Shown: piece after piece, positions 2,786 to 58,206 of the stretch | Layout: the number at the start of each line of letters is the position of its first letter | Numbering within the stretch: position 1 is the first letter of the stretch | Assembly: GCA_965153455.1 (NCBI GenBank) | Contig: OZ234494.1 | Coordinates: 7,936,001 to 8,000,000 of the forward strand | Direction: 5' to 3' | Source: Sphagnum compactum | Taxonomy: Eukaryota | DNA length: 64,000 nucleotides | Notes under the pieces: model-generated | Databases searched by the model: none | What the model saw: only the letters and a program-made list of their open reading frames with translations | What the model was told of the DNA's origin: nothing | Translations under genes and position numbers: made by a program

Positions 2786-2980
2786 GTGAAGTTGCTCATC
2801 CTTCCACTCTTTTGGATTGGAGTGGGGTTGCTGTTTGTGCCTTAGGGCAACTCGTTCTTATGCTTTATTAGAGGATCCAATAATGGTCATTCTTGCACCT
2901 TCATCAATGTGCATTGATCATGTCTATTCTCTCCTGGCCATGTGTATGTCATCTGCTAAGAATTTGGAATTTGTGATCAG

Positions 2981-5842
2981 ACTTGTGAAGCTGAAATCAA
3001 AGAAGGATTTCCATTGCCCAAGACTGGGAGAACCGCTTCATCTATGATTATTGCCAACAACAAAGCGCCTGGGATGGTGGCTCAACCTACAGACTTGGAG
3101 TCTCTTCCCCATGGAATGTCTCACACCAGAACTATGGAGATGGAGACTGACTCTATTGATATCAGAATATCTCCCTTAGAAGAAAGTGATGTGAGATCGA
3201 AGTCCCCTGCAGTGCTTCAGGAGTTGCTAAGGTGTGAAATGAGGACCTCAGAAAAGGCACTGAAAGCTAAGTTGCCAGGGTTTGGAAGGGAGATTGTGGA
3301 TCAGCTGGAGAGAAGAGATACAGAGAAGGATGCAGGACAGAAATCACAGTTGTTTAGTCAAGAGAAGTCTCTAGCTCCACATGATTGTTCCGGGCCTCAG
3401 GACAGTGTGCAACAACAGCCTCTGCTGGAAAGGAAGGATGACAAGCAAACAATTGTGCCACACTGCATTTTACCCCCTTGCCCACTAGACCCTTCTTTGC
3501 TCTCTTCAAATTCACATAGCCAAATGTCATTGCCCCTAAAGAGTCCATTGGCTAACAAGGGCACGGCTTGTCTTCTGGAAGCTGCTGTGAAAATCTTGGA
3601 GCCTGACATGCAATCATGCGTTTGTGCTCAAGCTTCAAATGCCCAGCAACCACCAGCAAGTGTTCCATCTGTTCCTCATCCACACAATAGGAATGGCACA
3701 AGTTCTGGAGGTGAAGGAGTCTCACATCTAGTGGCTAGTGAGACTGCAAGGACAGTGAGAAGCAGTGGTTATAGCAGCGCCACCTTTTCCAATTTGAGTG
3801 CCAGCAAAGCACTCTGCGGCCAATCAATGAGTAGAATTTGGAATGGAACAGAAGATAGTGAATTGAGTAGTGCTGGGATAGATGAATCACAATACAATCA
3901 TGGCTCTGTTTCATTTCTTGACTCTTGCAGATATAACTGTGAATGTAGGGGATGTTTTGATAGTGCTCTAGGAACCCAGGCACGATGTCTCTCACCTCCT
4001 GGCAAAGCTTGCTCAAATAAAGCAGTAAACATCAAAAGTGGCAATTACCTGGAGGTAATTAGTGGATTGGCAACATCCAAGACCAATGAGGCTTCCATGC
4101 AAAAGTTCAAATCTGAAGTGAGAAACTACTCAGATCCATGGTCTGCCAGGGCATCAGAGAGGCTCACCACAACTTCCAGTTGTGCAGCCAATCCTGACTA
4201 TCAGAAAACATATGAGGTAAATGTGCAACACCAAGCAAGACCATTGCTGTCTTTCTCCTTTGGGAAGCCAGAGAGCATGGTAACAGACTGTCCAGATTTC
4301 AACAAGGTACCTGAACCTGTTAGTCCTCAGGTTCCAGTTCCATCTATACCTCCCATCTCACAAAAACACATGCTTTCTGGCATTGCAGTGAGTAGGAATG
4401 GAGGCTGTGGATACTGTGAGGCATTTGCTTCCACTATGCCAAATCCTGTGCTTGCAGCTAGTGAATTTGCCTCACAATCAACCACAAAGGAAGAGGTTCT
4501 CACAAGGGACCTGCAACCACAAGGTCCAACATTGTCACAGGCTCCTGCACAAAAGCAAATTACTGGTACTACTGACATGCCATGTGACAGGAGACCATCT
4601 TCAAATGGTGGAATGCGGGCAGTCAGGGCACTTTGGGGGACTGTTGCAAAACCAGACAAGGAAGAGATTTTGCTGAGACAACAGGCCTTCCCAACAGAGA
4701 GCACAGTGAGATTGGACTTGTCCCATGGAGGTCTACAAGGTCAGCGTGTGCCAGAGTGTTTGTCATCAGCAACTCAGGAAGAAAATGTGTTTCATAAACT
4801 AGCAGAGATGACAAGGATTAGCTACAATAAACTGTTTGGTGTTCGAAGGGATGGAAACAGATCTGCCTGTCAGAAAGCTGTGGTGGTACCAAAAGGATGT
4901 GAAACAGTCCAGTCAGTTCTTCAGCAACAATCTGTCCCTTATACTGTTCCTCCAAGATGCATTACAAAATCAATTGTTGATATCATGGACATTGTCAATC
5001 CAAAGGTGTTTAGCACAAAGAGTTGTACACCAGAGATCCATCAGTTCAAGACCACTCTAGATCAAAGAGTAGCAGCAGTGGTTCAAAATACATCAGTGGA
5101 ATTCAGTGGAGGGTGTTTCAGAGAATGCCCAACAGACAAAAATGCAGTAAGGGTTAGGGAAGAAATATTTGACTCAGCAACCTGTGTTAAGCTTGAGAGT
5201 AAGCAGTTTGAATGTAGGGTCACTCCATTGCACAGTAGGGCAAGAAGCATTGATGAGGTATTTCCTGAGCTTCCCTTGGACTCAGATCTAACAGCATCAA
5301 AATCCCACACATCTGAAAATGGAGTATTTTGCGAATTCGATGTGTTTAAGCTGAATCACCAGGATCTTGAAGCACTAGGTCAGAAGCCAGGTCAATGTAT
5401 GTTTGATAAGGGCCTAGCCTCATATATGGCTCCCTTCATCAATAGAAGTGCAATTACAGCACCATGTGATGAGTGGGAAACCGATGGTCATAAGAAAGGG
5501 GTGCTACCAAACAAAGGTGCTTCAGCTGACTGTAATCAGGAAACTTGTCCAGTGGTGCACACTTTGGCTGGTGATGTTGGTGTTTTGTTTCCACGTAAAG
5601 AATCAAATTTGAAGTTGTTTGCAAAAGTTTTAGAGGATCTACATGCACAGAATGAGATTGAAAAGTGGAGGAGAAGTCTTTCACTGATGGGGTTAGTCTC
5701 AGAGAACCAGGCTTGTAACAGCACAGTGGATTCTCCACATGATTTGTTAAATATAGGGGACACATTTAATGCTGAGACTGGTGGTGCCTGGAGTCCTACT
5801 GCAGCTGAGGATTCTGCAGATGGCACAGCTGAAATGTCAGAG
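2981..5842 (+). CDS. TRM/DUF4378 protein, large exon 3
   Basis: ATCAG acceptor ending 2980, in frame with the 944-aa ORF. KAPGMVAQPTDLESLP resembles a degenerate VARLMGL motif, LLEAAVKILEP is present, and the donor GAG|GTATAA lies at 5843. Confidence 0.85.
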
Positions 5843-5903
5843 GTATAATGTGAATGCCTTGTGAGACCAGTCTTCTCCACTTGCCATTTTTCTTCGTTTG
5901 CAG

Positions 5904-6180: not shown

Positions 6181-6311
6181 GTCATGTTATGGTCCTTCTC
6201 TTAGTCCATGCAACACATTTGATTCGGCCTAGTTTGGCACTTGCTGGGACCCCTCTATATGTCATTCATGAGTTTTAACCAAACATGGTGCGCTTATACT
6301 TGTGATTGCAG

Positions 6312-7120
6312 AGTCAGAGCAACAACTGGATAAAGTGCTTGAGCTTCACAACACACATGTGGGTATTCAACCTTCTTCACATGACGTCAAAAAAGCATGT
6401 GACTCTTTGCAGGAAAGTAAGCGCAGCAGCAGTCCTGTGGCTGAAATAAAAAGCATCAGGGAAAATGAGAAAAGTTGCCAAGCTATCTTAGAAATCTCTG
6501 AGTTTCAAAATGTGGACCTACATGGCAGATTATTGAAGGCACATCTTCTTGTCCAAGAAAAGGAACAGAGCTTTGTCCAGGGAGTTCTTAGAGCTGCACA
6601 ACTTCTGTCAGAGAGTGAGAGTGCACTCAAGTGCTTTTTACCTGGCTTACCTATGGACCCAACACTTTTCGATAGACTAGAAAGTGATGATGCGGAACAA
6701 AAAAATCTTGGAGGTGCAAGTGTCAGCTTGTCCCGGACAAGCTCTCATTACCAATATGGAGCCTTATTGCAATGTGACCACAAGCTTCTCTTTGACAGCA
6801 TGAATGAAGCTTTGGTTGCAGAAATTGACTCTTGTGGAGAGTTGAAGCCATGGGTGAACAGCATTCCAATGGTTTCAGATTTTGCACTTGGGCCAGGTGG
6901 ATGCAAACTAGTGGACAAAGTGTATGGAACAACTTGCAAGTGGAGGGAGCTGGCCTCAAATGCCATAGATAGCTTGATAGATAGAGACATGGCTTGTGGA
7001 TTATACAGGTGGAGCTACTATGAGCAGGAAATTGGAGACATAGCTTTAGAAATTGGAAGCACACTTTTTAGTCAGATGGTTGAGGAGGTTGTAAATGACT
7101 TAGCTGCTGTATTCAGTTAG
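6312..7120 (+). CDS. TRM/DUF4378 protein, last exon (DUF4378 domain, M2 motif)
   Basis: TTGCAG acceptor ending 6311 (phase 1). Contains DHKLLFDSMNEAL and the terminal EIGDIALEIGSTLFSQMVEEVVNDL, typical of DUF4378/TRM C-termini. TAG stop at 7118-7120. Confidence 0.88.
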
Positions 7121-10100
7121 AAATTTGCAGGGTCTACTCCTAGTCTGAGATCATTAATCATGGAGCTGCAAATTGTATACTGGGGGTTTGCCAAGGTTTT
7201 TGTGGGTGATGGATTGCCTGCACTGCAAAGTGGTCACACAAAGAATGGGAGTGCAGTGAGAATTTCTGACTGGTTTCGAAGGGCACCATATGGTTCTGTT
7301 CAGGTTGCAATTATGAAGTTACCTAAGAAGGTACATCATCCAAGCTTGCAATTTGTCTGTAGGTACATGTTAGCCATCTAATGGTGAAAGCTTGCTAAAT
7401 TTTTGTTCCAATACAGGGTGATTAGGAAGTTCAAATCTGAGAAGCTTTGTATAGATGGTGTTCTCATTGCAGATGTGAACAGCCAGCATCTGTGTTGTAG
7501 ATATGTGTTCTATGTCAGCAGTGACAGCTGCTCTTGCAGCAATCTTTTGCATACAACTGTGGACATTGGCTCTTTGGGTGCGATTGTCTTCAACCAGACT
7601 CTTCTTGTACAATTGGAGTCTGAGCTTTTCCTGCAGTTGTCTGGGTTCAAGATACAAGTCTAATAGGTGGGCTTGCATTGAGAATGGTACTGGGAAGGGT
7701 CGTGTGGTACTTCCAAGTTAAACTTCCATATAGTACTCAAAGGTGAAGTGTTAGCATCCGATCCATTGCTTCTGGTTACTGCTTTGTGTGCTCAAGGAAC
7801 ACTTTCACTTGTCAATCTGAGAACATGTTCCTCAGTTTATGGGTTTTAAGATGGTTCTTGAATTGGGTAGATCTGGATTATTGCAAGCTTATATACATTG
7901 TGCCTGGGGCTTATGGGAAGGAAAGAAGATATTATTGAGTCCAAAAATCATTTACTCAAGTAGAGGCTGTCACCCATTTTATTATTTTAAACGACCTTCA
8001 AATCAAGCTGAAAGACTTATGTGTGAATAAGTCTTTGCAAATTTTCAGAGCATTTGCCCCAGGTTTTTGGTCTAAAATGGATGCGCCACTATGTTACAAG
8101 TCTTGAATTGGTATTTGATTTTGTTAATAACTGTTGTTGGTTCCTGGTTTTAAATCTGTCTATCAAGAATGGTTGCTTGTTTGTTTTGTTTTGTTTTGTT
8201 TATCATGTAGAGATTTCACAACCACACTGCCTCTTGCTGCACTCTTGGTTCTGTTGGAAAACCCTTGATGATGAGTAGGGAGTGCACTGGACTGAGTCAG
8301 TTTCATAATGTTTTGATTCACAGTGGAGAAGTTATTTGAATATTGAACAAAATTTGCAATGAAGATTCATTTAAATCAAAACTAAAAAAATAAAGGGGAA
8401 ATTAAGCATGCTCTTGATATCATTGGAAAGCCCTAGTTAGTAGGATGTAATGAAGGTGGGGGAGATATTGAAAAGATATGATCTAATTCCAAAGCTAAGA
8501 ATGTTTTTTGAATAATTTTTCGTGCATGGTATTAACTTTTAAGTTGTTAATGGTACTCTTTTAAATGATAATATTTATATAGTAGGGCAAACTTGTTACT
8601 ATTATAGAAAATCTTGTGGTGCGTGTACTAACATAATTTGACACTTGTCATAATTTTCACATGTTTAAGGTGGAGTCTATGTTTATTACTTTACATGTTA
8701 TTTTAATCTCTTAACATGGACTTGTGCCAAAATAGTCATAAATTGATTTTTTTAACATGCAAACAAATATATATGAAGGAAATAATTATACCTATGAAAT
8801 GTTACTATGCCTTTAAAACATTGTTAGAGATGTTAGCATTCGATGAGATGTTACAATTTACACTCCACCAAAAGCTTTAGTATAAATGGTATGTGGAAGT
8901 GAATGATCGTATTAAAAATTGGGCTTTGGTTGGAATGCATAACCATCTAGCTTTGGTTCGCATTGGGCTTACAATACAACCTTAAAATGATGAAAATGAT
9001 TTCATGTGAGAGTGTCAAAGATAACCAATCTTCTAAACAATCAATCACTACCATAATCAAAACTTGCATATTGAAATAACAATAACAATAGCCAAACAAA
9101 AGGTAGTCCTTGGGTAGCACAATGCACGTTGCCTTCCTTGCAACTATCAAATTTTACCAAATGGAGAAGAATACATGAACAAATTCAACAACAAATAGAA
9201 CAAAACAAGATTGCACACTTTTCAATTTTTATAATGTTTTCAAGTTATGCTCGTTGCATGGGAACCCTTGCCATGGTTGGTTTCACTTCAATGCCTCTTT
9301 GTTAATGTTACAATCATCCCCCTTTTTTAGTTGGGTGTTTTTATTTAACACCTTAAAAAATTGAAGTTTTTTTGCCACAATCTTTTCATGAAACTTACAT
9401 TGAACATATAATGATAGATGATTTTTTGCATGACACGTTACAATGTAGCATATATTTTATTGCAAAATTTTCAAGCTTGTAATGAAAATTTTGGACCAAC
9501 ATATATATCATAATAATTGAAATAAATAATAAATATTGAATATATATGTTATACACCTAAATAAAGTTACAAAAACATGGTTGAAATAAATTTGTTATGA
9601 GATAGTTGTACAATGCACACCTAGTTGATGTCGCCTTTGATGTTGTGAACGTTTCCAAATGTGCCCATCTGTAACAAATTTGTTGTAACAATGTTTATTA
9701 TAGGTTTTGATTTAAAGTGTAAAGTATCTGAAAAGTAACTGCTCTTTCAACATATGAACTCAAAAAATTCATCACTAATTCAAAATGAAAATCATTAACA
9801 AATTGTAATTGTATCTATTTTATAATATAAGTAAAACCAATTAAAATCATTTGGACACAAAGATAGTAATTACCACTAAACTCAAATGTGAATTTTTTTG
9901 TCGATAATTTTATGTAAGATTTTCAGCAAAAAAAATTTAAGCTAACAACATCTACATCATAACAAGTTACCATAAGATTATAAATATGTTCAACTTTAAA
10001 ATGTTGTATGACTTTCAATGCAAAGATAAGTTGCTATAATTTTTCAACACCTTGAACACTTACTTCGAGTATGAGAACAATCATTTTCTAAATCATTCAT

Positions 10101-44300: not shown

Positions 44301-47300
44301 CATCAAAACTTCACATAGGGCCATGTTAAATAACATTGTTTTTTTCCAATTCCTAAGTTATCATATTGAATATTGTATTTAAAATTTCTTTGGTTTTTTT
44401 TGTTATTTCATGCTTAAGTTTGCTTAACATATCAAATGTAAAAATTGATAGTTATCATATTTGGAGAACATTTTACTAGGGCAAAAAAAAGGAGTTAGGA
44501 GACTTGAAGATAATTTTCTCCAAGTTATGGATGAAAGATAAAATGACATTTTTGAAATTTTGAATTGAATGTTAGTGTTAGATGAACCCAATTCGTGGCT
44601 TCTTCACCAAAACTCATTTGACACACTACATATGACATTCCGACATACTTGTATTATACTAATGAAAACCAAAAAAAAATCTAAAATTGAAGTGAATGCA
44701 ATAAATAAGATACAAAAACCATTTTCAAGAAAAGGAGGATGTGTGCTAAGGGGGGAAGGGGGCACTATGTATTAGTAGAGGTCTTAATGATACATATTCC
44801 ACATTTATGGTTTGATACTTTGGTAAAAATCATTAGACGTTAGCATTAGGTATGTCCAAACCTTGTAAATTACCTTAAAAGCTAATGCAAAAATTGAACT
44901 TTGCATATATATGTTTAGTTTGTTTCATGGTATTCAAAGGAAATTTGTCTTACTTTTATTAATGGTGCATCCAGATATTTGCATTTGGTACATGGGCCAA
45001 GTGTTAAACAACTAGCATGTTAAAGGTGGCTTGTTAAGCAAAATGGGTGGTGTGCATTGACACAACTGTGTTAACCTCATGAAGCTAACGTCATTACCAT
45101 TCAGGCTTTGCTTTTAACACAAAAAGATTTAATTAGTTTGGTGTGTATTTCAAGTTTGATTCTTTGACCAATTCATGTTGAACATTTTATGATATACTAG
45201 ATTATCGAATTATGTTTGAAACTTGAACATAATACATTCAATTCATTCAACCACTTTATGTCTCTAGCATAATAGTTCAATCACAACCAATGTGGTAGGC
45301 ACTACATAATGTGTATGAAATCAATGTAAGTAGTCATGTAGATGGGTCAAGGATGGATTTCAAACCAAAGTGTAAATGAACATCTTCTTATAGAAAATAT
45401 TTGTTTGTGGATGGTGATAATAACAATTGTCCAAGATTACATCTTGGTAAGACTATTGTTCAAAAAAAATCTTCTATTTGAATAGAAAAAAAAGCTTAAG
45501 CAAAAAAGTTGTTTTAGAAGTGGGAATTCCAACTAATTAAAATTGATATGCATTTAGTGGGACAGTTTGAATTAATTTTTGTTTAGGTTTTTCTTCCTCC
45601 ATATTTGGATCTTCATTATAAATCCATTGCATTCCTAGAACTTGGTTGTAAGTCTTAGGTCCTTGAGATGTTGCATACATGATTGATTTACTGATTTAGT
45701 AATTTGGGTTTTTTTTTTAACACACTTTCTAAAAACATAAGAAATAAAAAACCTTTCAAATAGTCACAATAGGATAATTTGATCAAAGTCTTAAAAGACC
45801 TAGTGACCTTTAAATGTTTGTTCTTTTGGATAAAATTTTTGTTATTAAATTAGGGGTAATCCAAGTCTCATTCAATGTATGTGAGATCCAATAATTTGTC
45901 CAATGGCCTTTTGAATGACAAGCAAATTTGTCATATCTATTTTTCATTTTTTTGGGGCATGATAAGCCATATGTGTTGGATATTATTGCATTGTATATAT
46001 GTTTTTTGGTTTATTTTAAAGTTTTATAAATCCTTCCTTACTCTTTTTTCCATAGGATCTATCATTTTTTAGGTTTGTGGTGCTTATCAATTTGGAAGAA
46101 AGTCAATTACATATGCTTTTGATATTAATGTTGTTGATTAAAAACATGACTTTAAAACTATAATCAAAGATCCAAATAAAAGCATGTATGCATCGTTGTT
46201 TGTTTACTTCATTATCAAATTGAATTAAAGTCCCTTTTCTTTTGTAGGAGTCACTTCTATTATAACCAATACTTGAATACATAGGTAATATGGCTTCAAA
46301 ATTGATGCATTGATAGAAATTTGTAAATTCTTTGCATTTACATATCCATTATGTAATAAATAATAAAATCCTTCAAATAAAAGATTATGACACCAAAAAA
46401 TGCAAAAGCACAAGAATGTTTCTATTCCATAATACTTTTACCATTTTGGCATAAATTAAATTATTTTTCGTTTTGCTGAACTTTTGAAAAATGATTCATT
46501 ATTTGTGCCGAAATTTTAATAAACTTAAAAGTTTAACTGTCAAGATTTGAACCATAGGCCTTCCATGACAATGACTTAAAATTGAAGCAGTCTAGACACA
46601 CTAGATTGCTCCATAACATTGACAAAACCATGTTTATTATTTTTATAATCATTACATGCTGATAATTTTAGAATTAAAAAACCAAGTGCCAAAGTTAAGA
46701 TTTCAAATTTAAATAATTTTTTGACAATTTTTTGTTGAAATCATAAAGGTAATACGGTAACAAATGTTTGTGATGCTTAAATGACTCTTAAAAATATAAG
46801 ATTGCTTTAAAACACATTACAAAATGAAACATATTTTTGAGTCATAATCATTTTAAAAAAATTATGGAGACTTATAAACCATGACTATAAAAATATTTTC
46901 CTTAAATGATCATTCATGTTATGTCATGTCAACTTTGAATATTTAATCCACTATTTCTAAGGATTCACCCAAATGGGCAATTTTGGTTCTTAATATAGAG
47001 AAACACCCATTATGTATAATCTTATGCATGTTTGCACGACTTTGATTATTAAATAAGCATGTGGAATTACAAGGATGCCAATAAAATCAAAGTTCAAAAA
47101 AAACATTCATGTGTTCAAAGATACATAAGAAAATATTAGTTGGCCTTCATAATACCATGTCAATCCATTTTTCCATCATGATATCAAAGGTATTTTTCAT
47201 TTTTTTTCATGTGTTTTAATTTGTTTATTGTTGATTTTTAAAGTTCATTGCATCATAAATTTTTTGTTGCCACACACCCAAAAACCTTTTTTTTTATTCA

Positions 47301-48013
47301 CCTTTTCCAGAAGCTCATTCACATTACTTTGAAAATGTGTTTATTCCCAAGAACAGGCCTAGATTGTGCATTCATTTGAAGTATAACAAATTCATGTATA
47401 GTTTACATGTTTAAAATACATTATGTTTTATCACCTTTCTTTTGGATTTTTTTAATAAAAACGACATGGCAATAAAATAATTTAAAAACTTTCTTCTTTC
47501 AACATGGGTTACAACCTTTTAGTCATAAGGGTGAGCAAATTTGTTAAACCTTAATGATGTGGTGGTCTTACTATACAATTTGAATGTCATAATTCATTTC
47601 ATTTCTTGAAACTAAATTTGGGCTAACAAGATCACTTACAAGTTTTGGGCTGACCAATTATAAATCATGCAACTATAATTTGGTAAAGGGTATGTTTCAT
47701 ATCATTTTCAAATCCACTATTGCTAATCATAAGTTTTATAAATTAAAAAATACAATTGCAATACCATTTTGAAAAATGTTGGAAATTGAATCTAAATACA
47801 TAATGTCTTTTGTTGAAATGGAAGTAAACATCATGAATGAATATAGATACTGAAATTTTATTATTGAATTTGAACAATATGAATGAAATTAATTGAAAAG
47901 GTTATTATCAAAGTTGAATAATCACAAACAAATGTAGTTGTTGTTAATTGTAGTTTAAATGTTGTTTAACATGAATGACACATTGTTGGAGTTGGAAATT
48001 GAATAATTTCATA

Positions 48014-49479: not shown

Positions 49480-51045
49480 ATACAAAAAACAATGGAGCTC
49501 TTTCAACAAATGCAATAAAAAGGCATGATTCCAAATAAATTCACATTTGTTTGAGTGTTCATTGCATGTGCTAGTTTGCCAACACTTGATATGGCAAACC
49601 ATCCATATGCAAATCCTTCAAAGTTGCTACATGAATCAAATGTCTATGTAATTAATAACTTGATTGACATGTATAACAAATGTGGGAGCATAGTAGATGC
49701 ATGGAAAATGTTTAATACGATGCTACCTATGTGAGATGCCATTGCTTCAAATTCCACGATACTAGGACTTGTGAAATGTGGGCAAGGGTAGAAGGTGTTA
49801 TCATTGTCTAGAGAAATGCAATAAGAAGGGATGGAGTTAAACATTATCAATTTTGTGGGGATTTTGAATGAGTTTGCTAGTGTCATGGCACTTGAAAAGG
49901 GCATGTGTGTTCATGAACAAATTGTTCAAAGTGGTTTTGATTCAAATGTGTTTGTGAGTAACAACCTTATCGATATGTATGCCAAATGTGGAAACATTAA
50001 GGATGCTTGGAGAGTGTTCAACATGATGCCCACATGTAATATGGTAATTTTGAGTGCCATAATTTTGGGACATGTGAAATGTGGTCAAAGGCAACATGCA
50101 TTAACATTGTATCAAAAAATATAATTGGAAGGGGTGGAGCCAAGCCTTGCCACTTTTGTGGGAGTTTTGCACATGCATTTGCCAACAATATGGCATGTGA
50201 AGAGGGCAGGCATGTGCATGAGCAGATCATCCAAAGAGGTTACAAGTCTAATGTCTTTGTGGGTAATTGTTTGATTGACATGTATGCCAAATGTGGGAGT
50301 ATAGAGGATGCTCAGAGATTGTTCAACATGTTGCCTATGCATGATGTCATTGCTTGGAGTGCCATGATTCTAGGACATGTGAAATGTGGACAAGGGCACA
50401 AGGCTTTGGAGTTATCTCAACATATGCAATTTGAAGGAATGGAGCTAAACCCTGGCATCTTTGTGGCCTTGTTAAATGCATGTGTTAGTTTAGTGGCACT
50501 TGAAGACGATAGGCAAGTTGAGATACAAATTTCTTAGAATAATTTTCACTCTAATATTTTTGTGGATAATAGCTTTATTGACATGTACACCACATGAAGG
50601 AATATTGAAGATGATTGGAGTGTATTTGACAAAATGTTCACACACAATGTTGTCTTTTGGAATACCATGGTTATGGGACACATGAAATAGGCAAGGTCAG
50701 TAGGCATTAACTTTGTTTCGACAAATGCATTAGGAAGGGGTGAATCTAGACCCTATCATTTTTTTGGGGGTCTTGAAAGCATGTGCCAATGTTGCTGTAC
50801 TTGAACAAGGCTTGAGCAAGGTAGGCATGTTGGGAGAAAGATCGGTCAAAATGGTTTTGAGTTTGATATTTTTGTGGGTAATAGCTTCATTAACAAGTAT
50901 GCCAAATGTGGGAATACAGGGGATGTTTGGAGAATATTCAATAGTCTACCCATTCGTGATATAGTTTCATGGACTGCCATGCATGCGCATGCCATTGAAG
51001 CTCTTCGACATTTTGACCAGATGTGTGAAGGTGTTGAGCCCGACA
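49480..51045 (+). pseudogene. PLS-class PPR pseudogene, 5' part
   Basis: Repeated P-L-S triplets (NVFVGNCLIDMYAKCGSIEDA; DVIAWSAMILGHVKCGQGHKALEL; FVALLNAC..ALE) broken by many in-frame stops and frameshifts. Ends EGVEPD. Confidence 0.9.
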
Positions 51046-54000
51046 CAGTAGTGATTGTGCCACTCAAGCTTTTAGTGAAATTAAGATTTGGTTTTGGCAT
51101 AATGCCTTAGCTAGGGACCCTTAAGTAGTTTTTTATATTTATCCTTTTGATTCGTTTAATCTTCTGTGGTTAATTTTGTAGATTTAGGATTGCCCTATAG
51201 TAGTAGGTAGTTTTTTAATAGGTGGGGCATGTGTTCCTATTAGGCCTCCTTCTTCATGGGCACCAAACGTCCCATGTCTCCTAATTCATCATGTCCCATT
51301 GAATTTCGTCCTTCCCATCGCCCATTTGCTTTATCACGTGCCACCACAGACCTAGTTTCCACCCCATCTCCCATGCAAACCATGCACCTCCCATTAGTTC
51401 CCCTTCCCATTTTAACAAACCACACACCAGCCACTAGTTCCTCTTACTGGCCCCCAGCCCTTCGTGTGAATATGGGGCCCCAACCCTACATTTTCCCAAA
51501 CCCCCTTGGTCATGCACATGTAGGACCTTTTCACCTTTCCACTCTACCAACATTTATAGTTACAAATGATCAGACCCCCCAACTTACCTTCATCTTTTCA
51601 ACACATTTGCAACCTCCACCTAAAGTCTTTTGCCCTACTTGTTGGCACCAATTTACCAATCGAAGGTTAGCTCATCATCAATGTTCCTGTTAAGCACCCA
51701 ATTCATTTAATCCAAACCCGCATGACCTTCCCGATTCAATACCTTCCCTTGTTCCCACCTTGCTTACATAAACCTAGACTTGGGTTTCGTCTTTGGATGT
51801 CTTCGGGTCCTATCATTTAGGCTTTCATCGTCTTCGATTATATAATTGCATCCTTGTTGCTTTACGACGTGATGTACAAATGGCGTTTCATTTTCTTTTG
51901 GATAAATTAACGTAATACCCCTATGATGTGGCAGCTTGGCACTTGCTCCTTTTATTACCCCAATGGTGTTTCACTTTGCCCCCTCATGGTGGGGCAATAG
52001 GGCATAGGGAAATGCGGATTTGACTCAAACGCTTTTTAGTAGGTGATTGGGAAAACTTGTAGGAGGATTTTTCTTTGCAAGCCCAAGTTTTGGTAGCAAG
52101 TTCAAATTCAATGCCTATTTGCCCAACATGATCCCATAGCTCATAAATGCTTTTTTCGCAATCTAATGTTTGGACGTGTAGGGGAATATTCTAGAGCAAT
52201 TTGTGCCTTGGCACCATTTTCCCCTACGCCCACGTCCTTTAACACCACTTTAATTTTTATCGCAATACACCACCATCAGATGGCTACTTTCCATTTTTCT
52301 TAAAAGTTTATAAATGAGACTAAGACCTTGAACTTTCTTTTGATTATTTCAAACTGGCATTCCAACGCATGCCCCATTTGTCGGCAAATGGTCCTTCTGG
52401 GATGGTTTTTAAACACCTTCAGGCTTGCTTTCACCTAGAAGATTCAATGAGTGGATTCTTTCAATTATTTCAGCTTTGTTCTCATATCGTTGAAAATCAC
52501 ATTCCACCTCGAATTGTACATGTCCTTGGCGCAGCCTGCCTCTTAGCCATCACCAAGCCTTCAGGTAGAATTCATTCTAGTGGGGGAAGCAATGTATTGA
52601 TTCCTAAGTGGTGCTTTATGCCTTCAATTTCACGACATCTTTACAACACATTTCTCCCCATACCAATTTGGAGTTGCAACTGAAGGCGGTTGTGAAATAA
52701 TAATCCATGGCATTAGGTGCACACTAGAATTTTACCTCGATTGGCTTGTTTTCCAACTATACGTGGCAAATGCCTTCAATTTGGTGTCAAGAGGGGTCAT
52801 ATTTCAAGAACTTCATGTAGCCGATGGAAATATCATGCAATTCATCCCCTTTGTTTGTGCATTATATGCATTTGAGTCTCCCATGTTTTATAACCATCAT
52901 AATTGTGTAGGCAATGTCTTAATCATCACCTCTACCATGGGAACCCGTTGAGGTGATCTTTTGGGAGGGGCACTATTTGCATTAGCCCACTTTAGGGCTT
53001 TGCATTCTATAACTAGTCATTTCTCTTCTTGTCTATTTCCATCCATTACAAATGACATTCACATCATAGGTCCCCCTTCTATTGTATCATTTGCATATGA
53101 ACATTTTCAAATCGAACTTTGTGCGATAATTCTTTCATTCCAACCTCATAAATGTGTAGCATGGTCACCCTCTTATTTATTGCCTAATTTTAACGCCCCA
53201 TTTTAATTTACCGCCCCATTAAAATGAAATAGAGTTTTGGGAGTTCCATTGGGCACTTCATCATTCACATAATCCTTCATCAAAGATGCCTTACTAAAGG
53301 ATGTTTGACATGTGGATCTTTTCCTTACAATGGATGATGTTCAGGTAACCTTTTGAATGTTAATTCACCATTTCGTGCAATGACCTTCATATATCTTATG
53401 ATGTACATTTCCCTTTTCCATCTTCATAGAATCCTTCACTTCTTTTGACTCCTCTTTCCTTCAAGCGTTTGGGCACCTCTTGGATCCAAGATCTTTTGAC
53501 AACCCAAAAGGACCTTTGGCCCATAAACAAGCCTGTCTCCCAATAACTTTCAGTGGCATTAGGTTCATACCGATAGCCACCATTGTCCCAACAACCTATT
53601 TAGGGAGTTGGGCTCTTGTAGCTTCAATTATAGTTGTTAGGTTTATGATTGATCAAAATCCTTTCGTTCTTGAAGTTTTAGCACGAGTCAACAATAACAC
53701 CTTCCCTTTCTAGCAACATTTCAAGGCGGCATGTGATCTCCTACCACCCCCAGTTCACGCATGTCTTCCTTCATTTGAACAATTCATCGGACAACAAATG
53801 GTTCGACTTCAAGCTTCCATCTTGGAGCGTTTGCACCATCATACCTTTTCCAACATGTTTTCCAACGCGATATTTGAAGCCCATCATGCCTGAATTCCAT
53901 CATGTTCTGGCCCAAGGGCGGGTGTTTGGTTTTCATTTCGACCAATCTTTCTAATCTTTCGATTAACTTCCCCGATCTTTTCCATAACGTTTCGAATACG

Positions 54001-54854
54001 ACTTGGATTACCCCATCCATCAATTGTAAGTATCCTTTGATGTGTGTGCACACATTCCATCGACACTATGGGTATCCACTTTTTATGTTGTGTTCATGGC
54101 AATAAACACACAGGAACCCATGATGTAATTTGCAACACCTTTGTTGCCATTGCGTGAGATGTTGGTTTCCACGTGGGGCGAGAACAACTACATGTGCTTC
54201 CTTCAAACATGTTCAACTCTTCTTGTGGATAAATCAACATTGTGTTCACCCAAAATGGCATTCGCACCTTAGTCAATGTATTGTCAACCTAACACACTTA
54301 GATTTCTTTCTTCCATCTTGCACTACCCAAGGATTTGTTGCTTCTGATGCGGCTCAAGCCAAAGAATGGAGCTATCACGATCAACACCCTGTTGATCAAT
54401 TCTTCCCCTTAACAGTGGAAGTATTTGGATGTTTACATAAGTAAGTTAATGTGTTTTTATACAATTGTGCCAATGCCATTTGGATTTTGAAAGGACCAAA
54501 GGGCCTTCTTTTTTCTATCTTGGTTTTTTTTTTTTGGCGAAAACATTCACATTACAAGGCCTGCAAACATCCTCCATTTTAAGTTGGGTGGTAACCATAT
54601 GCTTAACTACTTCCTGACTTCCACCCCTTCAGGACACATCTCCCATCTCCACGACCGACTTATTGCAAGCAGCCAATTTTTGATATGGAAAAATATGATT
54701 GACAAGCGGTCGATTTTTGACATGGATAGGTTTTGACATCTAGTTTGAGCTTACTTGACGTCCTGTAAATTCTCCTTTTTCTTTTTTCTTATCCATTTGT
54801 ACATTTTCTTAATCTACAATGTGTCTATCAATAAAGTTTTGTAGGGTTGCATCA
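51046..54854 (+). mobile_element. Degenerate non-LTR retrotransposon, CRE-like (Zn finger, RT, CCHC knuckle, restriction-like endonuclease)
   Basis: FCPTCWHQFTNRRLAHHQC; SANGPSGMVFKHL; LAITKPSG; HFSPYQFGVATEGGCE; VANAFNLVSR; GTR*GDLLGGALFAL; ITNDIHIIG; VLGVPLG; RIRLGLP..CVC..GIHFLCC..GTHDVI; AAQAKEWSY..FFPLTVEVFG. AATAAA at about 54830. Flanked on both sides by PPR sequence. Confidence 0.85.
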
Positions 54855-55020
54855 ATATAATCACTTTTGTCTCTCTTTTGTCAACTTGTAATCATGAATA
54901 ATGGGGGGAAGGTTTGCACTACTTTGAATCCATGGGCTTAGTTCATGGCATCTTTGAACAATGACTAACCCTTTGCAAATCAAAGCTTGAAGTTGCATGT
55001 CAACGCTACTTTCAAAATGA
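54855..55020 (+). pseudogene. PLS-class PPR pseudogene, 3' continuation after the retrotransposon
   Basis: IITFVSLLSTCNHE*WGEGLHYFESMGLVHGI continues EGVEPD as in the consensus PDxITFxxLLxACSHxGLVxEG..YFxSM. Confidence 0.8.
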
Positions 55021-56280
55021 GCACATCAATATAAAAAAAACCTTGATTTAATTCATATAAATCCCTAGCTCATGGATGAAGTTTCTTTACAATTGTTCAT
55101 TTTTCATCCATAATGATAAAAATTCATCCATCACCATACATGTGTCATTCAATGATGAATCCATTCACTTCATCTTTCATCTATTAAGGGATGAACTTCA
55201 TTCATCATATCCAATTTCCATCTATTGTTTTATGTTTATGTCCCGTGTGTTTCAATTTACGAGTTTTTTTTCAATTGTGATATTGGAAGGACTTGTTGGG
55301 GGGAATCAAATCAATTTTTGAGAGCATGGTGAAGGCTATTGATTACATATTTTAGAAACATTATTCATTTATTGGAAAGTAAAATTTGTAGCCACAAAGG
55401 AAACAAAAATTCAGAAAACCACACACACACCAAACCAATGAAAGAAAAAAATGATGAAATTGATTGCCAACAAAGGTGGCAACCAATTGATCCATATATA
55501 TGTATACTATTGTACCTTGGCAGCAGAAGAAACTATATTACCTTTTAAAATGCTGAAATTTTCAAAAATTACTTCTCTCAAAAACCCAATTTTTGTGAAG
55601 TACAAATACCTGAAACAACTTCAACCATTAAGAAAACATCCAGCAGATAGCACCACCTTCATCTCTACCCACACCACTACAGGATTTGCAGCATGACCTC
55701 CATTCTATATACATAAATCTGAAGATAGTGTGGATCAGTATATGAAAAATTACTCCCCTAGTTTTTAACCACAGCTCAACTGTGACACAATCCCTGTAGA
55801 ATGCAGAAGAGATACTTGGTCAAGTTTGATCAACAGATTTCCTTCCCTTGGGGACTCTTGTCCTTTGCTGAAGTCCAACTCACTCTGGCAGTTGGGCTGT
55901 GTTGGTACTCAGGGATCCAATGCAGCTGGGTCACCACACAGGCAATTGCAAAATCTATCCAGACCAGGAAGACTGTTTGTGTCCTTTACTGTCTTGTCCC
56001 AAAACATTAGTGAGGTCTGCCACTAATTCCATGTCTTGTACCCTACTTTCCTTGCAGTCCTCCTGTTTGGGGCTCTAATGTACAAATGAATGTCCCTGCC
56101 ATGAAGGGATGACTGTTTGATTGCTAAACAATGGGCCTTATGACAAAATTGAGCAGCAGTAGAGTCTTCTTCCACTTTTGTGAGCTTTCATGAACTCTAC
56201 TGTGCAGCAACATGAATATTTTCATTTACTCTACAATCTCTTCAGTGACCTAGAGTTTCAACAATAAATTCTCCACTGAC

Positions 56281-57812
56281 CTACAATTTCCTTAACAGTT
56301 TGGGTGTCCATCTCACACCTCTCTCCTTGCGGGAAAGGTGAATGCGGTTCTCGGTTGTGTACTTGAGGCCTGCTTGCTGGAGTGCTGCTCGTGTAATTTT
56401 TTCTGGAGAGAAACCAGCTCTTGTCATTTGGTCATAAACTGACTCTGCATCTGCCAGTTGGTTTGCTTTACAATATGTTTGTATCATAGTGTTGTAAGAA
56501 ACAGCATCAGGGGTGACTCCTTGTGCAATCATTTTACGAAACAAAATGGCAGCTTGAACAGAGTGGCCTTCCCGCCCATAAGCACCGAGGAGGATGTTGT
56601 AGAGAGTAATATCTGGCTGACAACCAGTAGCCAGCATTTCATTGTAGTATTTCCCCACTTCCTGTAGCATGCTGAGTCGGCCATAGGCTTGTATGACTGA
56701 GCTCCATGCCACCACATTAGGTTTGAAGCCATTTGCTTGCATTTGCCTAAACATGTGTGCAGCTTCTTCGACTAGTCCTGCCTTTCCATAGACAGAGATC
56801 ATGAGGCTGTAAATGGTTGAATCTGGACAGCACCCTGACTGCTTCATTTCGAGAAAAGTATCAATTGCTTCCTGATGCTTGTATGTACGACTATAGAGCT
56901 GAATCAACCCAGCAAAGGTGACCACATTTGGCTCAAGCCCTGCTGCTCTGAGGCTAGCGTACACCTCCAAACCCTCATTGTACTTGCCTGTTTGTGCATG
57001 CATGGTCAGCAAGGTATTATATGTCACAAGGTTGGGTGTGGCATCAGTTGAACACATTTCCTGAATCAAGGTTGAAGCTCTCTCTGCATGCCCTGCCTTG
57101 CTTAGAACAGAGAGGAATGTGTTGTAGGACTGGGCACTGGGTAGGAGACCTTTATGCTTCATGCTTAGGAAGAGTTTCTCAGCCTTTTCAATGGGGAGGC
57201 CAGCCCTTCCAACAGCATTCAAGAGAGTGTTGAAAGTGATTTCATCTGCATGGATCCCCCTAGTCACCATATCCTCATACAGTCTCCATGCCTTCTTGAA
57301 ATTCCCATTCCTTCCATAAGCCCCTATCATTGCATTGTAGGAGTACACCAATACTGGGATGTCTGAGGACAACATGGAATCAAAAACCTCGCGGGCTCTG
57401 CTTACCATGCCTACACGTCCCAACACCCCAATAATTGAACTGTAAGTGTGTCCATTTGGTTTCAGTCGACGTTTTTGCTGTTGCATCCAACTAAACACTT
57501 CAAAAGCAAGTGCTCCTTCATGGTGACATCCAAGCTCCTTTATAACATTGCACAGATCTACTCTTGTGATCTTTCCCACCCATGTATCAAGCAGATTTGT
57601 GACAGCCCAAGATCCCGAATCCTCACGTTGGGCTCCCAGAAGTTCATTTATAATTGTCTCAACTCTCTGTCTGCAATCCTCCTCTGACCATGGTGGCTGT
57701 GGAGGCACTCTTCGCACCCTAATTGGTCCTCGCCAGATCCTCTTGGTCTTCCTCTGAGTTTCAACAACCACTGTATCCTCCATCTCCAACAAGGGACCCT
57801 CTTTCTCCTCCT
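56281..57812 (-). CDS. P-class pentatricopeptide repeat protein, last exon (10 PPR motifs)
   Basis: Open frame with about 35-aa repeats: HTYSSII, YSYNAMI, ITFNTLL, QSYNTFL, VTYNTLL, VTFAGLI, TIYSLMI, VAWSSVI, TLYNILL, VSYNTMI. Phase-1 acceptor TGAAG| ahead of 57812. Confidence 0.9.
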
Positions 57813-58206
57813 CTTCACAAGAACAATACTAACTCAAATCAGCAACAGATGATTTTCCTCTGGCACTATCTCCATCCATATGCAAACAACACTTTGACTC
57901 TTCCACACAAAACAACATGAGATTAGAGGACTAGACACATGGCCAAGAATTGCTGACCTTGAAAGCCTGGCATTTAGGGTTTCCCTTAGAACTAAGAGGG
58001 TTGTCACAACAATGCTACGGCAGGAGAGAAGAGGACAAGAGCCTCTTCTGCAAACACAGGACTGAAGCAGTATACAAATAACCACTGCAATAACCCTACT
58101 GTTTTCTTAGAGATCCCTTACACTAAAGCTTAGTGCAAAATCTGGAGACAGTTTGCTCTTACTGAGAATCAGTTACAATGACACAAATCAGGAAGAGAAA
58201 CACTAC

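Follow-up and report, generated by a model that had tools for sequence, protein, structure and literature searches.

A fossil retrotransposon with a predicted restriction-like endonuclease in the peat moss Sphagnum compactum

The stretch of DNA analysed here, called the window, comprises 64,000 nucleotides of Sphagnum compactum (GenBank assembly GCA_965153455.1, contig OZ234494.1, positions 7,936,001 to 8,000,000 of the forward strand), and all coordinates are counted from its first letter. Positions 51045–54856 of the forward (+) strand very probably (probability about 0.9) represent a fossil copy of a moss family of retrotransposons that lack long terminal repeats (non-LTR retrotransposons, also known as LINEs, for long interspersed nuclear elements), of the type that carries a restriction-like endonuclease (RLE). 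A first-pass annotation, made from the letters alone, had proposed a near-full-length element of the CRE clade, with a reverse transcriptase (RT), a CCHC knuckle and an RLE in a single open reading frame (ORF), without an apurinic/apyrimidinic endonuclease (APE), and inserted in a protein-coding sequence of a land plant rather than in a tandem target. The single-frame, APE-free layout of a non-LTR element is borne out by a sequence profile, structure models and Pfam scans, and the insertion indeed lies in a coding sequence, a pseudogene for a PLS-type pentatricopeptide repeat (PPR) protein. The description as near-full-length is correct for the coding region but not for the 5′ end, and membership in the CRE clade is doubtful.

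Reading frame and decay of the window copy

Three-frame translation of 51040–54900 recovered a zinc finger-like motif, the RT motifs, the CCHC knuckle, the C-terminal block and an AATAAA signal, each at or near the place assigned to it by the first-pass annotation. The coding features lie on a single reading frame of some 1,100 codons, from an ATG at 51256 to about 54650–54660, which can be rebuilt across the frameshifts as frame 1 (to ~52576, 12 stops), frame 2 (52577 to ~54301, 16 stops) and, from 54304, a return to frame 1 (4 stops by 54660). This adds up to about 32 in-frame stops and no fewer than two frameshifts, and the observed/expected CpG ratio of the element is 0.47. The frame continues past 'FGCLHK', where the window copy has a premature stop (54433–54435); this codon encodes His in 29 of 61 loci, the commonest state, and Gln in others. 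The catalytic residues of both enzymes are mutated. In the RT, the catalytic aspartates are lost from two motifs, which read LYVANAFN instead of the LDVANAFN of other copies, and SITNDIH instead of the SIVDDTH of P0236 and other copies. In the RLE, both Asp positions are Asn (INIVF vs VDIVL and LVNVLS vs LVDVLL elsewhere), and a frameshift near 54300 falls inside the core of the domain. The window copy is non-functional and has no present function.

None of eight decayed pieces from the window matched RVT_1 in Pfam, while flanking pieces matched PPR families. Pfam is thus blind on such decayed pieces, and intact relatives were used for the domain calls instead. These were identified with HMMER, using the 116-residue piece encoded at 52601–52951 against 1.84 billion representative proteins, which gave 635 matches at E≤0.001 and 112 at E≤1e-10, some of them intact proteins of 931–1373 residues. 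The intact 1096-residue relative P0116 matches the window in a tblastn search with an E-value of 3e-67 over 52553–54205, in one frame, and the alignments of full-length relatives to the window cover 51268–54495. Therefore, the element is real, far beyond chance. No second copy was found inside the window, where PPR self-similarity is the only internal repetition.

Compared with the contigs of run X1, the substitutions in the window copy are dominated by transitions (C>T 233, G>A 218, T>C 249, A>G 144), with transversions at 11–35 each, and many of the motif changes are Cys to Tyr or Asp to Asn. This transition-heavy decay would fit deamination of methylated cytosines.

The C-terminal nuclease domain

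All 11 long relatives scanned (10 of them 550–1373 residues) contain RVT_1, with scores above the Pfam gathering cut-off in 10 and below it in P0148 (22.9 bits). No Pfam family of endonucleases, Myb domains or RNase H was found in two sets of 11 and 10 long relatives, and the additional matches are weak or unrelated (C2H2-type fingers, Rua1_C and DUF6088). Exo_endo_phos was absent from the same relatives and from 45 ORF pieces located upstream of the ORF in longer copies, Pfam being weak on decayed pieces. For Myb, there was no match at E-values up to 0.5 in 10 relatives, and the N-terminus is disordered in the structure model. The first-pass annotation had named two findings that would overturn it, a grouping of the RT with L1/RTE or LTR elements, and an N-terminal APE coupled with the lack of a PD-(D/E)XK nuclease. 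Neither was observed; no APE was matched, and the nuclease is supported by the comparisons below.

R2 elements of insects and birds are LINEs whose DNA-cutting enzyme is a nuclease of the restriction-enzyme-like type. Aligned with each other, 43 relatives display the conserved blocks GPSG..EH, GGVRPIAIGE, Q.GVG..GG.E, D..NAFN, QGDPLGP.LF, YLDD and RLGL, and further C.CG...H...C, RH, R.D, DV.V, K...Y and F.P.A.E..G. The profile of this alignment, searched against all sequences in the PDB, placed R2 proteins first, with R2Tg at the top (9nl3, E 1.1e-43) and 9dou at E 5.1e-43, and R2Bm scored an E-value of 3.6e-28. The match to 9nl3 and 9dou spans profile positions 237–941 of 990, beginning in the RT and reaching as far as the nuclease extends, whereas human L1 ORF2p matches in the RT only (E 8e-19, positions 237–563). 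Stretches of the profile restricted to the RLE still matched R2 (E 1.4e-6 for 9nl2 and 4e-4 for 8gh6), with 'rraDilv...lvvDVtvv' of the profile paired with 'KPDLIFVKD..ALVVDVTVR', and 'yefvPlalesyGrlg' with 'FVGFPLGARGKW'.

The AlphaFold model of P0116 has a mean predicted local distance difference test score (pLDDT) of 86.5 and a predicted template modelling score (pTM) of 0.87. Residues 1–64 are disordered, the range aligned with R2 begins at residue 113–116, and the C-terminus consists of a helix, three strands, a helix, a strand and a helix. The top seven Foldseek matches of this model, with E-values of 5e-21 to 1e-17, are all R2 chains; L1 ORF2p and Prp8 come next. The alignment of the whole model by VIA-align covers R2 to its last residues.

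The C-terminal domain (the last 233 residues) was also modelled separately from 14 aligned stretches (pLDDT 85.3). The residues invariant among these 14 relatives are C23, C25, H36, C40, H50, D89, D104 and K134. Foldseek again placed seven R2 chains first (E 5e-5 to 7e-3), ahead of the PA and bunyavirus endonucleases, Prp8, EndoMS and Hje. In an exhaustive alignment to 48,161 chains, the best matches were R2Tg residues 1182–1390 (Z 14.1, 188 residues, root-mean-square deviation 3.3) and R2Bm residues 902–1107 (Z 12.6), with the PA endonuclease, Prp8 and Hjc next at Z 8.0–6.6; other PD-(D/E)XK nucleases reach Z 8.0 or less (6.6 for Hjc). The biochemically defined motifs of R2Bm (PMC4838377) are the CCHC, an RH in helix 1, the PD, a D/E in strand 3, a K..KY in helix 2 that supplies the catalytic Lys, and an RG.W that follows strand 4, and the invariant CCHC, H, D, D and K of the family fit them. 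The C-terminal domain is therefore predicted, on both profile and model grounds, to be an R2-like PD-(D/E)XK RLE, which places the family among the RLE-type elements.

Four further relatives (P0012, P0013, P0020 and P0032) are predicted proteins of 4213–5900 residues, each with two stretches that are 39–40% identical to the RT piece of the window. They may be gene models drawn across several elements, or giant fusion ORFs.

Copies and ends of the family

Alignment of 13 fragments against moss-associated metagenome contigs confirmed at least 582 relatives among the 600 pattern matches listed. The results for individual loci rest on the best 80 of these (at least 582) matches, which collapse to 52 distinct copies at ≥93% identity. 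The other copies are 71–81% identical to the window copy in DNA sequence (median 74.5%). The family is large and old.

The copies share a 3′ end, as 29 of the 46 distinct copies whose 3′ end lies inside a contig stop at the equivalent of 54836–54863 of the window. Their 5′ ends, in contrast, are staggered. Among the 48 whose 5′ end is internal, the element extends to 51054 or beyond in 16, starts within 51055–51300 in 14 and starts later in 18; homology detected by blastn begins at 51022–51054 in 16 of the 48. A shared 3′ end with staggered 5′ ends is the usual pattern of LINEs. The terminal 6–9 nucleotides (nt) are GCATCAAT, TGATGAT, TAATAAT, CATCATCAT or ACACACT, depending on the subfamily.

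Copies that extend further 5′ are homologous to each other in the additional sequence, over ~830–970 bp in one group (L047/L071; L055/L056/L033) and ~1300–1580 bp in another (L030, L044, L002, L022 and L069), such that the longest elements measure about 5.1–5.3 kb, compared with 3.8 kb for the window copy. The window copy is therefore 5′-truncated: position 51046, where the first-pass annotation had begun the element, is a sound start for this copy, but it marks a truncation point some 0.8–1.6 kb short of the starts of longer copies and not the 5′ end of the family. The additional upstream DNA has only short, unshared ORFs, and none of the 45 ORF pieces from 10 longer copies matches any Pfam family. 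Judging from these sequences, the missing 5′ part seems to be a non-coding 5′ untranslated region (UTR).

Two features of the flanks concern subsets of the copies. The 5′ flank of the truncated copy L076 (L076:4833–4882, ATAGGTCATGAAG) resembles the 3′ terminus of the family (ATAGGTCTTTGATGAA; the copy's own 3′ end is at 7128–7142), which may reflect a head-to-tail pair of copies or an insertion beside an older 3′ end. L048, L051, L031 and L034, which come from two different clusters (<93% identity), have the same 3′ flank (aaaagggacctcttgggttgcaccctgtatcacc), and this could be an old segmental duplication or an insertion into another repeat.

Insertion site and age

The sequence upstream of the element matches the Pfam PPR_2/PPR families at 50040–50537 (E 1e-11) and 50805–51110, with the pieces in different frames and interrupted by stops. 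At the 5′ junction, the target 'ggtgttgagcccgac' resembles the element's 'catgttgaacccaac', as read in longer copies, and the exact position of the break is ambiguous because of this microhomology. The Asp codon of the upstream PPR half ends at 51044, and the same repeat picks up at 54857. The other repeats of the gene follow the pattern G..(L/P)(N/D), three residues and F(V/L)..L, and the joined GVEPD + three residues + FVSLL fits them (e.g. GVNLD-PII-FLGVL and GMELN-PGI-FVALL). Since the repeat pattern fits across the insertion, the two halves join with neither duplication nor loss visible. The only local effect of the element is to have split this PPR gene, now a pseudogene.

The 5′ junction is reproduced exactly in contigs of organism A, the best-matching organism label (50375–51233, 0 differences), and is also spanned by a contig of organism B (50375–51233, 22 differences). 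The 3′ junction is spanned by another contig of organism B (54822–55563, 14 differences and 7 gaps) and by one of organism C (54782–56000, 52 differences); a 5′ piece from organism C enters the element by only 16 nt. Since each of organisms A, B and C has a contig across one junction or both, the insertion is older than the divergence of at least two of these labels. Some sequencing runs of small share carry the label 'moss metagenome'. In polyA RNA of organism A (run X22, ~12% read), no read with at least 85% likeness mapped to 51005–54220, and very few reads mapped to 54221–54823.

The PPR target has multiple repeats and is decayed on both sides of the insertion. Many RNA reads on 50000–50600 continue into unlike sequence (share 0.92), and these probably originate from paralogues.

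Relationship to other elements

From 530 columns of trimmed RT-to-CCHC stretches, an unrooted tree was built with the LG+G4 model and SH-aLRT support. It comprises 57 rows, of which 50 are relatives and 7 are moss copies with X at unreadable codons; none is a reference from a named clade, and every row assembled was retained. The moss copies form one clade with a support of 100, their rows having an odd letter make-up. This clade lies within a 12-row clade (support 96) together with P0116, P0064, P0059, P0100 and P0036, which in turn is part of a 17-row clade (support 99) that holds CLOP_g14003 (P0151) of Closterium sp. NIES-67. Cymbomonas falls in the sister group of the 17-row clade. After midpoint rooting, it shares a half of the tree with that clade, and the opposite half contains Porphyridium, Symbiodinium and Diplonema as well as a protein of a tardigrade. 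On these sequences, the family would belong to a wider RLE group of green, red and other algae, with its nearest named member from Closterium; the tree fits descent within streptophytes but is not proof of it. A protein atlas gave RT clusters only. A small one among them carries the label Streptophyta, based on two members of known phylum, and offers a lead.

The unnamed algal elements of this group (Closterium, Cymbomonas, Porphyridium 'Retrotransposable element', Symbiodinium, Diplonema) have the same architecture and motifs as the moss family. They differ in that they encode intact predicted proteins of 900–1400 residues, whereas the moss copies are all decayed, and the long relatives are 24–34% identical to the window over the main RT-to-RLE tblastn alignments. 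R2 (R2Bm, R2Tg and turtle R2; PDB codes 8gh6, 9dou, 9nl3 and 9nl2) likewise has a single ORF with finger, RT with N-terminal extension, thumb/linker, CCHC and PD-(D/E)XK nuclease; the motif 'R.D(I/L)..(n)..VDVTV' occurs in both, and neither has a poly(A) tail. However, the moss family is found outside 28S ribosomal DNA, the insertion site that strictly defines R2, and its flanks are a PPR pseudogene here and diverse sequences elsewhere. It also differs in its AATAAA-containing 3′ UTR and its 5′ UTR of >1 kb, and the identity in structural alignments is only about 15–20%. The Myb domain that strict R2 elements have beside the N-terminal finger(s) was not matched in the 10 relatives scanned.

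HERO is an animal clade. Like the moss family, it is RLE-type and has dispersed insertions; RLE elements that lack a strict target, HERO among them, are mentioned in PMC4640811. The LINEs of land plants, according to a 2022 review (PMC9033089), belong to the L1 (seven subclades) and RTE superfamilies only, and have an N-terminal AP-endonuclease and an (A)n or (GTT)n end. The moss family resembles these in being non-LTR, in its 5′ truncation and in residing in a plant genome; in contrast, it has a C-terminal RLE and no APE, and no A-run or GTT-run is present at the 3′ ends of its distinct copies.

Alternative interpretations

The family could belong to the CRE clade proper, as the first-pass annotation had it, together with the trypanosomatid elements CRE1/2, SLACS and CZAR and the families from fungi and algae that Repbase places in it; we regard this as a live possibility, though a doubtful one. 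CRE elements are also RLE-type, with zinc finger(s) before the RT and without Myb, protease or RNase H, so that the finger-RT-CCHC-RLE layout of the moss family, which lacks an APE as well, is the layout of this group, and the relatives of P0116 include a protein from the euglenozoan Diplonema. Target choice points the other way. CRE elements reside in spliced-leader genes. The CRE, R2, R4 and NeSL groups are described as mostly target-specific (PMC4640811). The moss family is dispersed, however: no common target or flank motif was found, the 3′ flanks of distinct copies are unrelated, and the window copy lies in a PPR repeat rather than in a fixed multicopy target. According to PMC3636483, every known element of the CRE and R4 groups has target-site duplications (TSDs). 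The Diplonema protein itself is located in the other half of the unrooted tree, away from the moss clade.

Since the window copy is 5′-truncated, an AP-endonuclease might have been encoded in the missing 5′ part, as in an APE-type LINE or a Dualen/RandI-like element. Dualen, known from a green alga, combines an APE with an RLE and also has an RNase H. Of these traits, only the RLE is present in the moss family; neither the relatives nor the additional 5′ sequence of longer copies gave a match to an APE or an RNase H. The start of the ORF is conserved at 51256, the DNA before it has no long or shared ORFs, the intact relatives (931–1399 residues) have no Exo_endo_phos or RNase H match, and the 64 residues that precede the RT extension in the P0116 model are disordered. 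Such an origin is thus very unlikely. That the stretch is part of a domesticated retroelement, now an RT-derived host gene, for which the conservation of the insertion across organism labels might be cited, is hardly credible given the stops, the frameshifts, the lost catalytic residues and the hundreds of diverged, truncated copies with unrelated flanks; the lack of reads on 51005–54220 in the ~12% of the organism A RNA run that was read also speaks against it.

Several observations weigh against an RLE-type LINE family as the explanation, or limit how far it can be taken. With the whole P0116 model, VIA-align scores R2 (Z 18.7) and L1 ORF2p (Z 17.9) as a tie, so the distinction between R2 and L1 rests on the sequence profile, Foldseek and the search with the C-terminal domain. 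An intact moss copy, which the first-pass annotation had suggested looking for, was not seen among the best 80 of at least 582 matches, none of which has an open frame of more than 240 residues, though younger copies may exist; the working architecture is consequently deduced from two sources, the decayed copies and algal relatives with no more than 24–34% identity to the window in tblastn. The upstream 1–1.6 kb was also judged from decayed copies, and Pfam fails on decayed RT pieces as well, leaving some room for an upstream ORF that is now lost. Finally, the comparison of flanks proposed in that annotation yielded no shared motif and only a weak TSD signal: the longest word shared between the two flanks averaged 6.0 nt, compared with 5.73 in mismatched pairs. 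A shared word of ≥8 nt occurs in 3 of 38 copies (L021, 10 nt; L059, 9 nt; L011, 8 nt), where ~2% would be expected. The best candidate is L021, with CTTCAATCCT at both junctions, and none was seen at the window copy.

Proposed working element and its significance

A working element of the RLE-type family would have measured about 5.1 kb or longer, with a long non-coding 5′ UTR and one ORF of ~1,100 codons, encoding in order a Pro-rich N-terminus, a C2H2/C2HC-like finger, the RT with its N-terminal extension, a thumb/linker, the CCHC and the PD-(D/E)XK nuclease, and a 3′ UTR with AATAAA ~22 nt before its end but without an A-tail. By analogy with R2, the protein would bind its own RNA, the RLE would nick one strand of the target, and the freed 3′ OH would prime reverse transcription from the RNA's 3′ end (target-primed reverse transcription). 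Incomplete copying would generate the staggered 5′ truncations. For the window copy, copying presumably halted within the 5′ UTR, and the 5′ end may have been joined to the target via the short microhomology in one PPR repeat.

Elements of this type and the way they work are well established; any novelty would lie in finding them in a land plant, in such abundance and with dispersed insertions. No description of such a family was found in a search for RLE, CRE or non-LTR elements of mosses and land plants in the open full-text literature, a body outside which most subscription journals lie, and a Repbase or Dfam entry is possible. An overview article on Repbase names the clades without stating how they are distributed among plants. 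We tentatively suggest, at somewhat less than even odds, that the family represents the first documented RLE-LINE lineage in land plants, dispersed, vertically inherited from streptophyte algae and once highly active in the ancestors of peat mosses. If so, intact copies may survive in some bryophyte and provide a plant-native R2-like system. A large, old RLE-type family in a moss would widen the known LINE repertoire of plants and connect it with the elements of the algae most closely related to plants. As RLE elements are being studied as tools for gene insertion, natural relatives from plants could be of practical interest.

Annotated features and neighbouring sequence

The features of the window copy and its target are listed in Table 1.

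Table 1. Features of the element and its insertion site (positions in the window).
Feature	Position	Strand	Basis or remark
Upstream target, PLS-type PPR pseudogene ending ...EALRHFDQMCEGVEPD	49555..51044	+	Pfam PPR_2/PPR matches
5′ junction	51032..51049	+	Alignment of 17 loci; break most likely after 51044
5′ UTR remnant	51045..51255	+	Longer copies run about 830–1580 bp further upstream
Probable start codon (MGTKRPMSPNSS...)	51256..51258	+	Opening 'M(G/A)(T/S)K.P(M/I)S.NS' also in L030, L044, L022 and L069
C2H2/C2HC-like zinc finger CPTCWHQFTNRRLAHHQCSC	51631..51690	+	Weak C2H2 Pfam matches at the equivalent site in relatives
RT N-terminal extension (AAWHLLLLLPQW...FLVGDWENL; SANGPSGMVFKHL; LLAITKPSGRIH)	51883..52599	+	Frame 1 with stops; tblastn of P0116
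RT fingers and palm	52553..53300	+	Frame 2; relatives carry RVT_1
Thumb and alpha-helical linker	53300..53990	+	Continuous tblastn alignment to P0116 residues 594–840; helical in model
CCHC knuckle and H-D of helix 1 (RIRLGLPHP...CVCTHSIDTMGIHFLCCVHGNKHTGTHD)	53993..54124	+	Kept across loci
Predicted RLE core: first and second Asp strands, catalytic-Lys helix, strand 4	54218..54429	+	Motif alignment to other copies and R2
C-terminal helical ORF tail	54430..54660	+	P0116 continues for ~90 residues; helix 1030–1064 in model
AATAAA in 3′ UTR	54830..54835	+	~22 nt before the element end; same place in 23 of 29 distinct copies
3′ end (GTTTTGTAGGGTTGCATCAAT), no poly(A)	54836..54856	+	Last 6–9 nt differ by subfamily
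Downstream target, PPR repeat resuming as IITFVSLLSTCNHE, then decaying	54857..55000	+	Repeat pattern match

The N-terminus of the element is Pro-rich. The finger follows the pattern CPTCG.QFT..R.L..H...(C/Y) in the 33 distinct copies with data, the first Cys being kept in 25, the Phe in 32 and the His in 31; the best Pfam scores at this site are from P0183 (E 3e-5) and P0100 (E 0.03). The RT motifs are QFGVATEGGCE (from 52664), ANAFNLVSR (from 52766), GTR*GDLLGGALF (~52940–52978), SITNDIH, the decayed YxDD box (~53042–53062), and VLGVPLG (53234–53254). RIRLGLPHP begins at 53993, and the letters CVC...H...C...HD of the knuckle are found at 54041–54124, with the CCHC part at 54041–54091. These are well conserved across loci (C 57/60, C 52/56, H 55/59, C 47/61, H 53/55 and D 56/58). 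In the RLE, *INIVF starts at 54233, LVNVLS at 54269 and AQAKEWSY at 54352, and FFPLTVEVFG occupies 54400–54429. The corresponding motifs of the moss copies are CVCTHPID.MGIHLLHC.HGNE..THD, (Q/R)VDIVLTKDGI.TL.(D/N)VL, AQAKE.SY and FLPL.IEVFGCLHK.

Approximately 1.4 kb downstream of the element, an open 515-residue frame for a P-type PPR protein is located on the opposite strand (56281–57828, –; PPR_2, E 2e-91), and RNA reads with their first mate on the + strand are found from 55628 onward. A very AT-rich stretch (46000–48000, GC 0.25–0.27) lies upstream of the PPR pseudogene. Elsewhere in the window, a 282-residue frame at 6272–7120 (+) contains DUF4378 (E 2e-22), and a 962-residue open frame without any Pfam family is located just upstream of it, at 2960–5848 (+).

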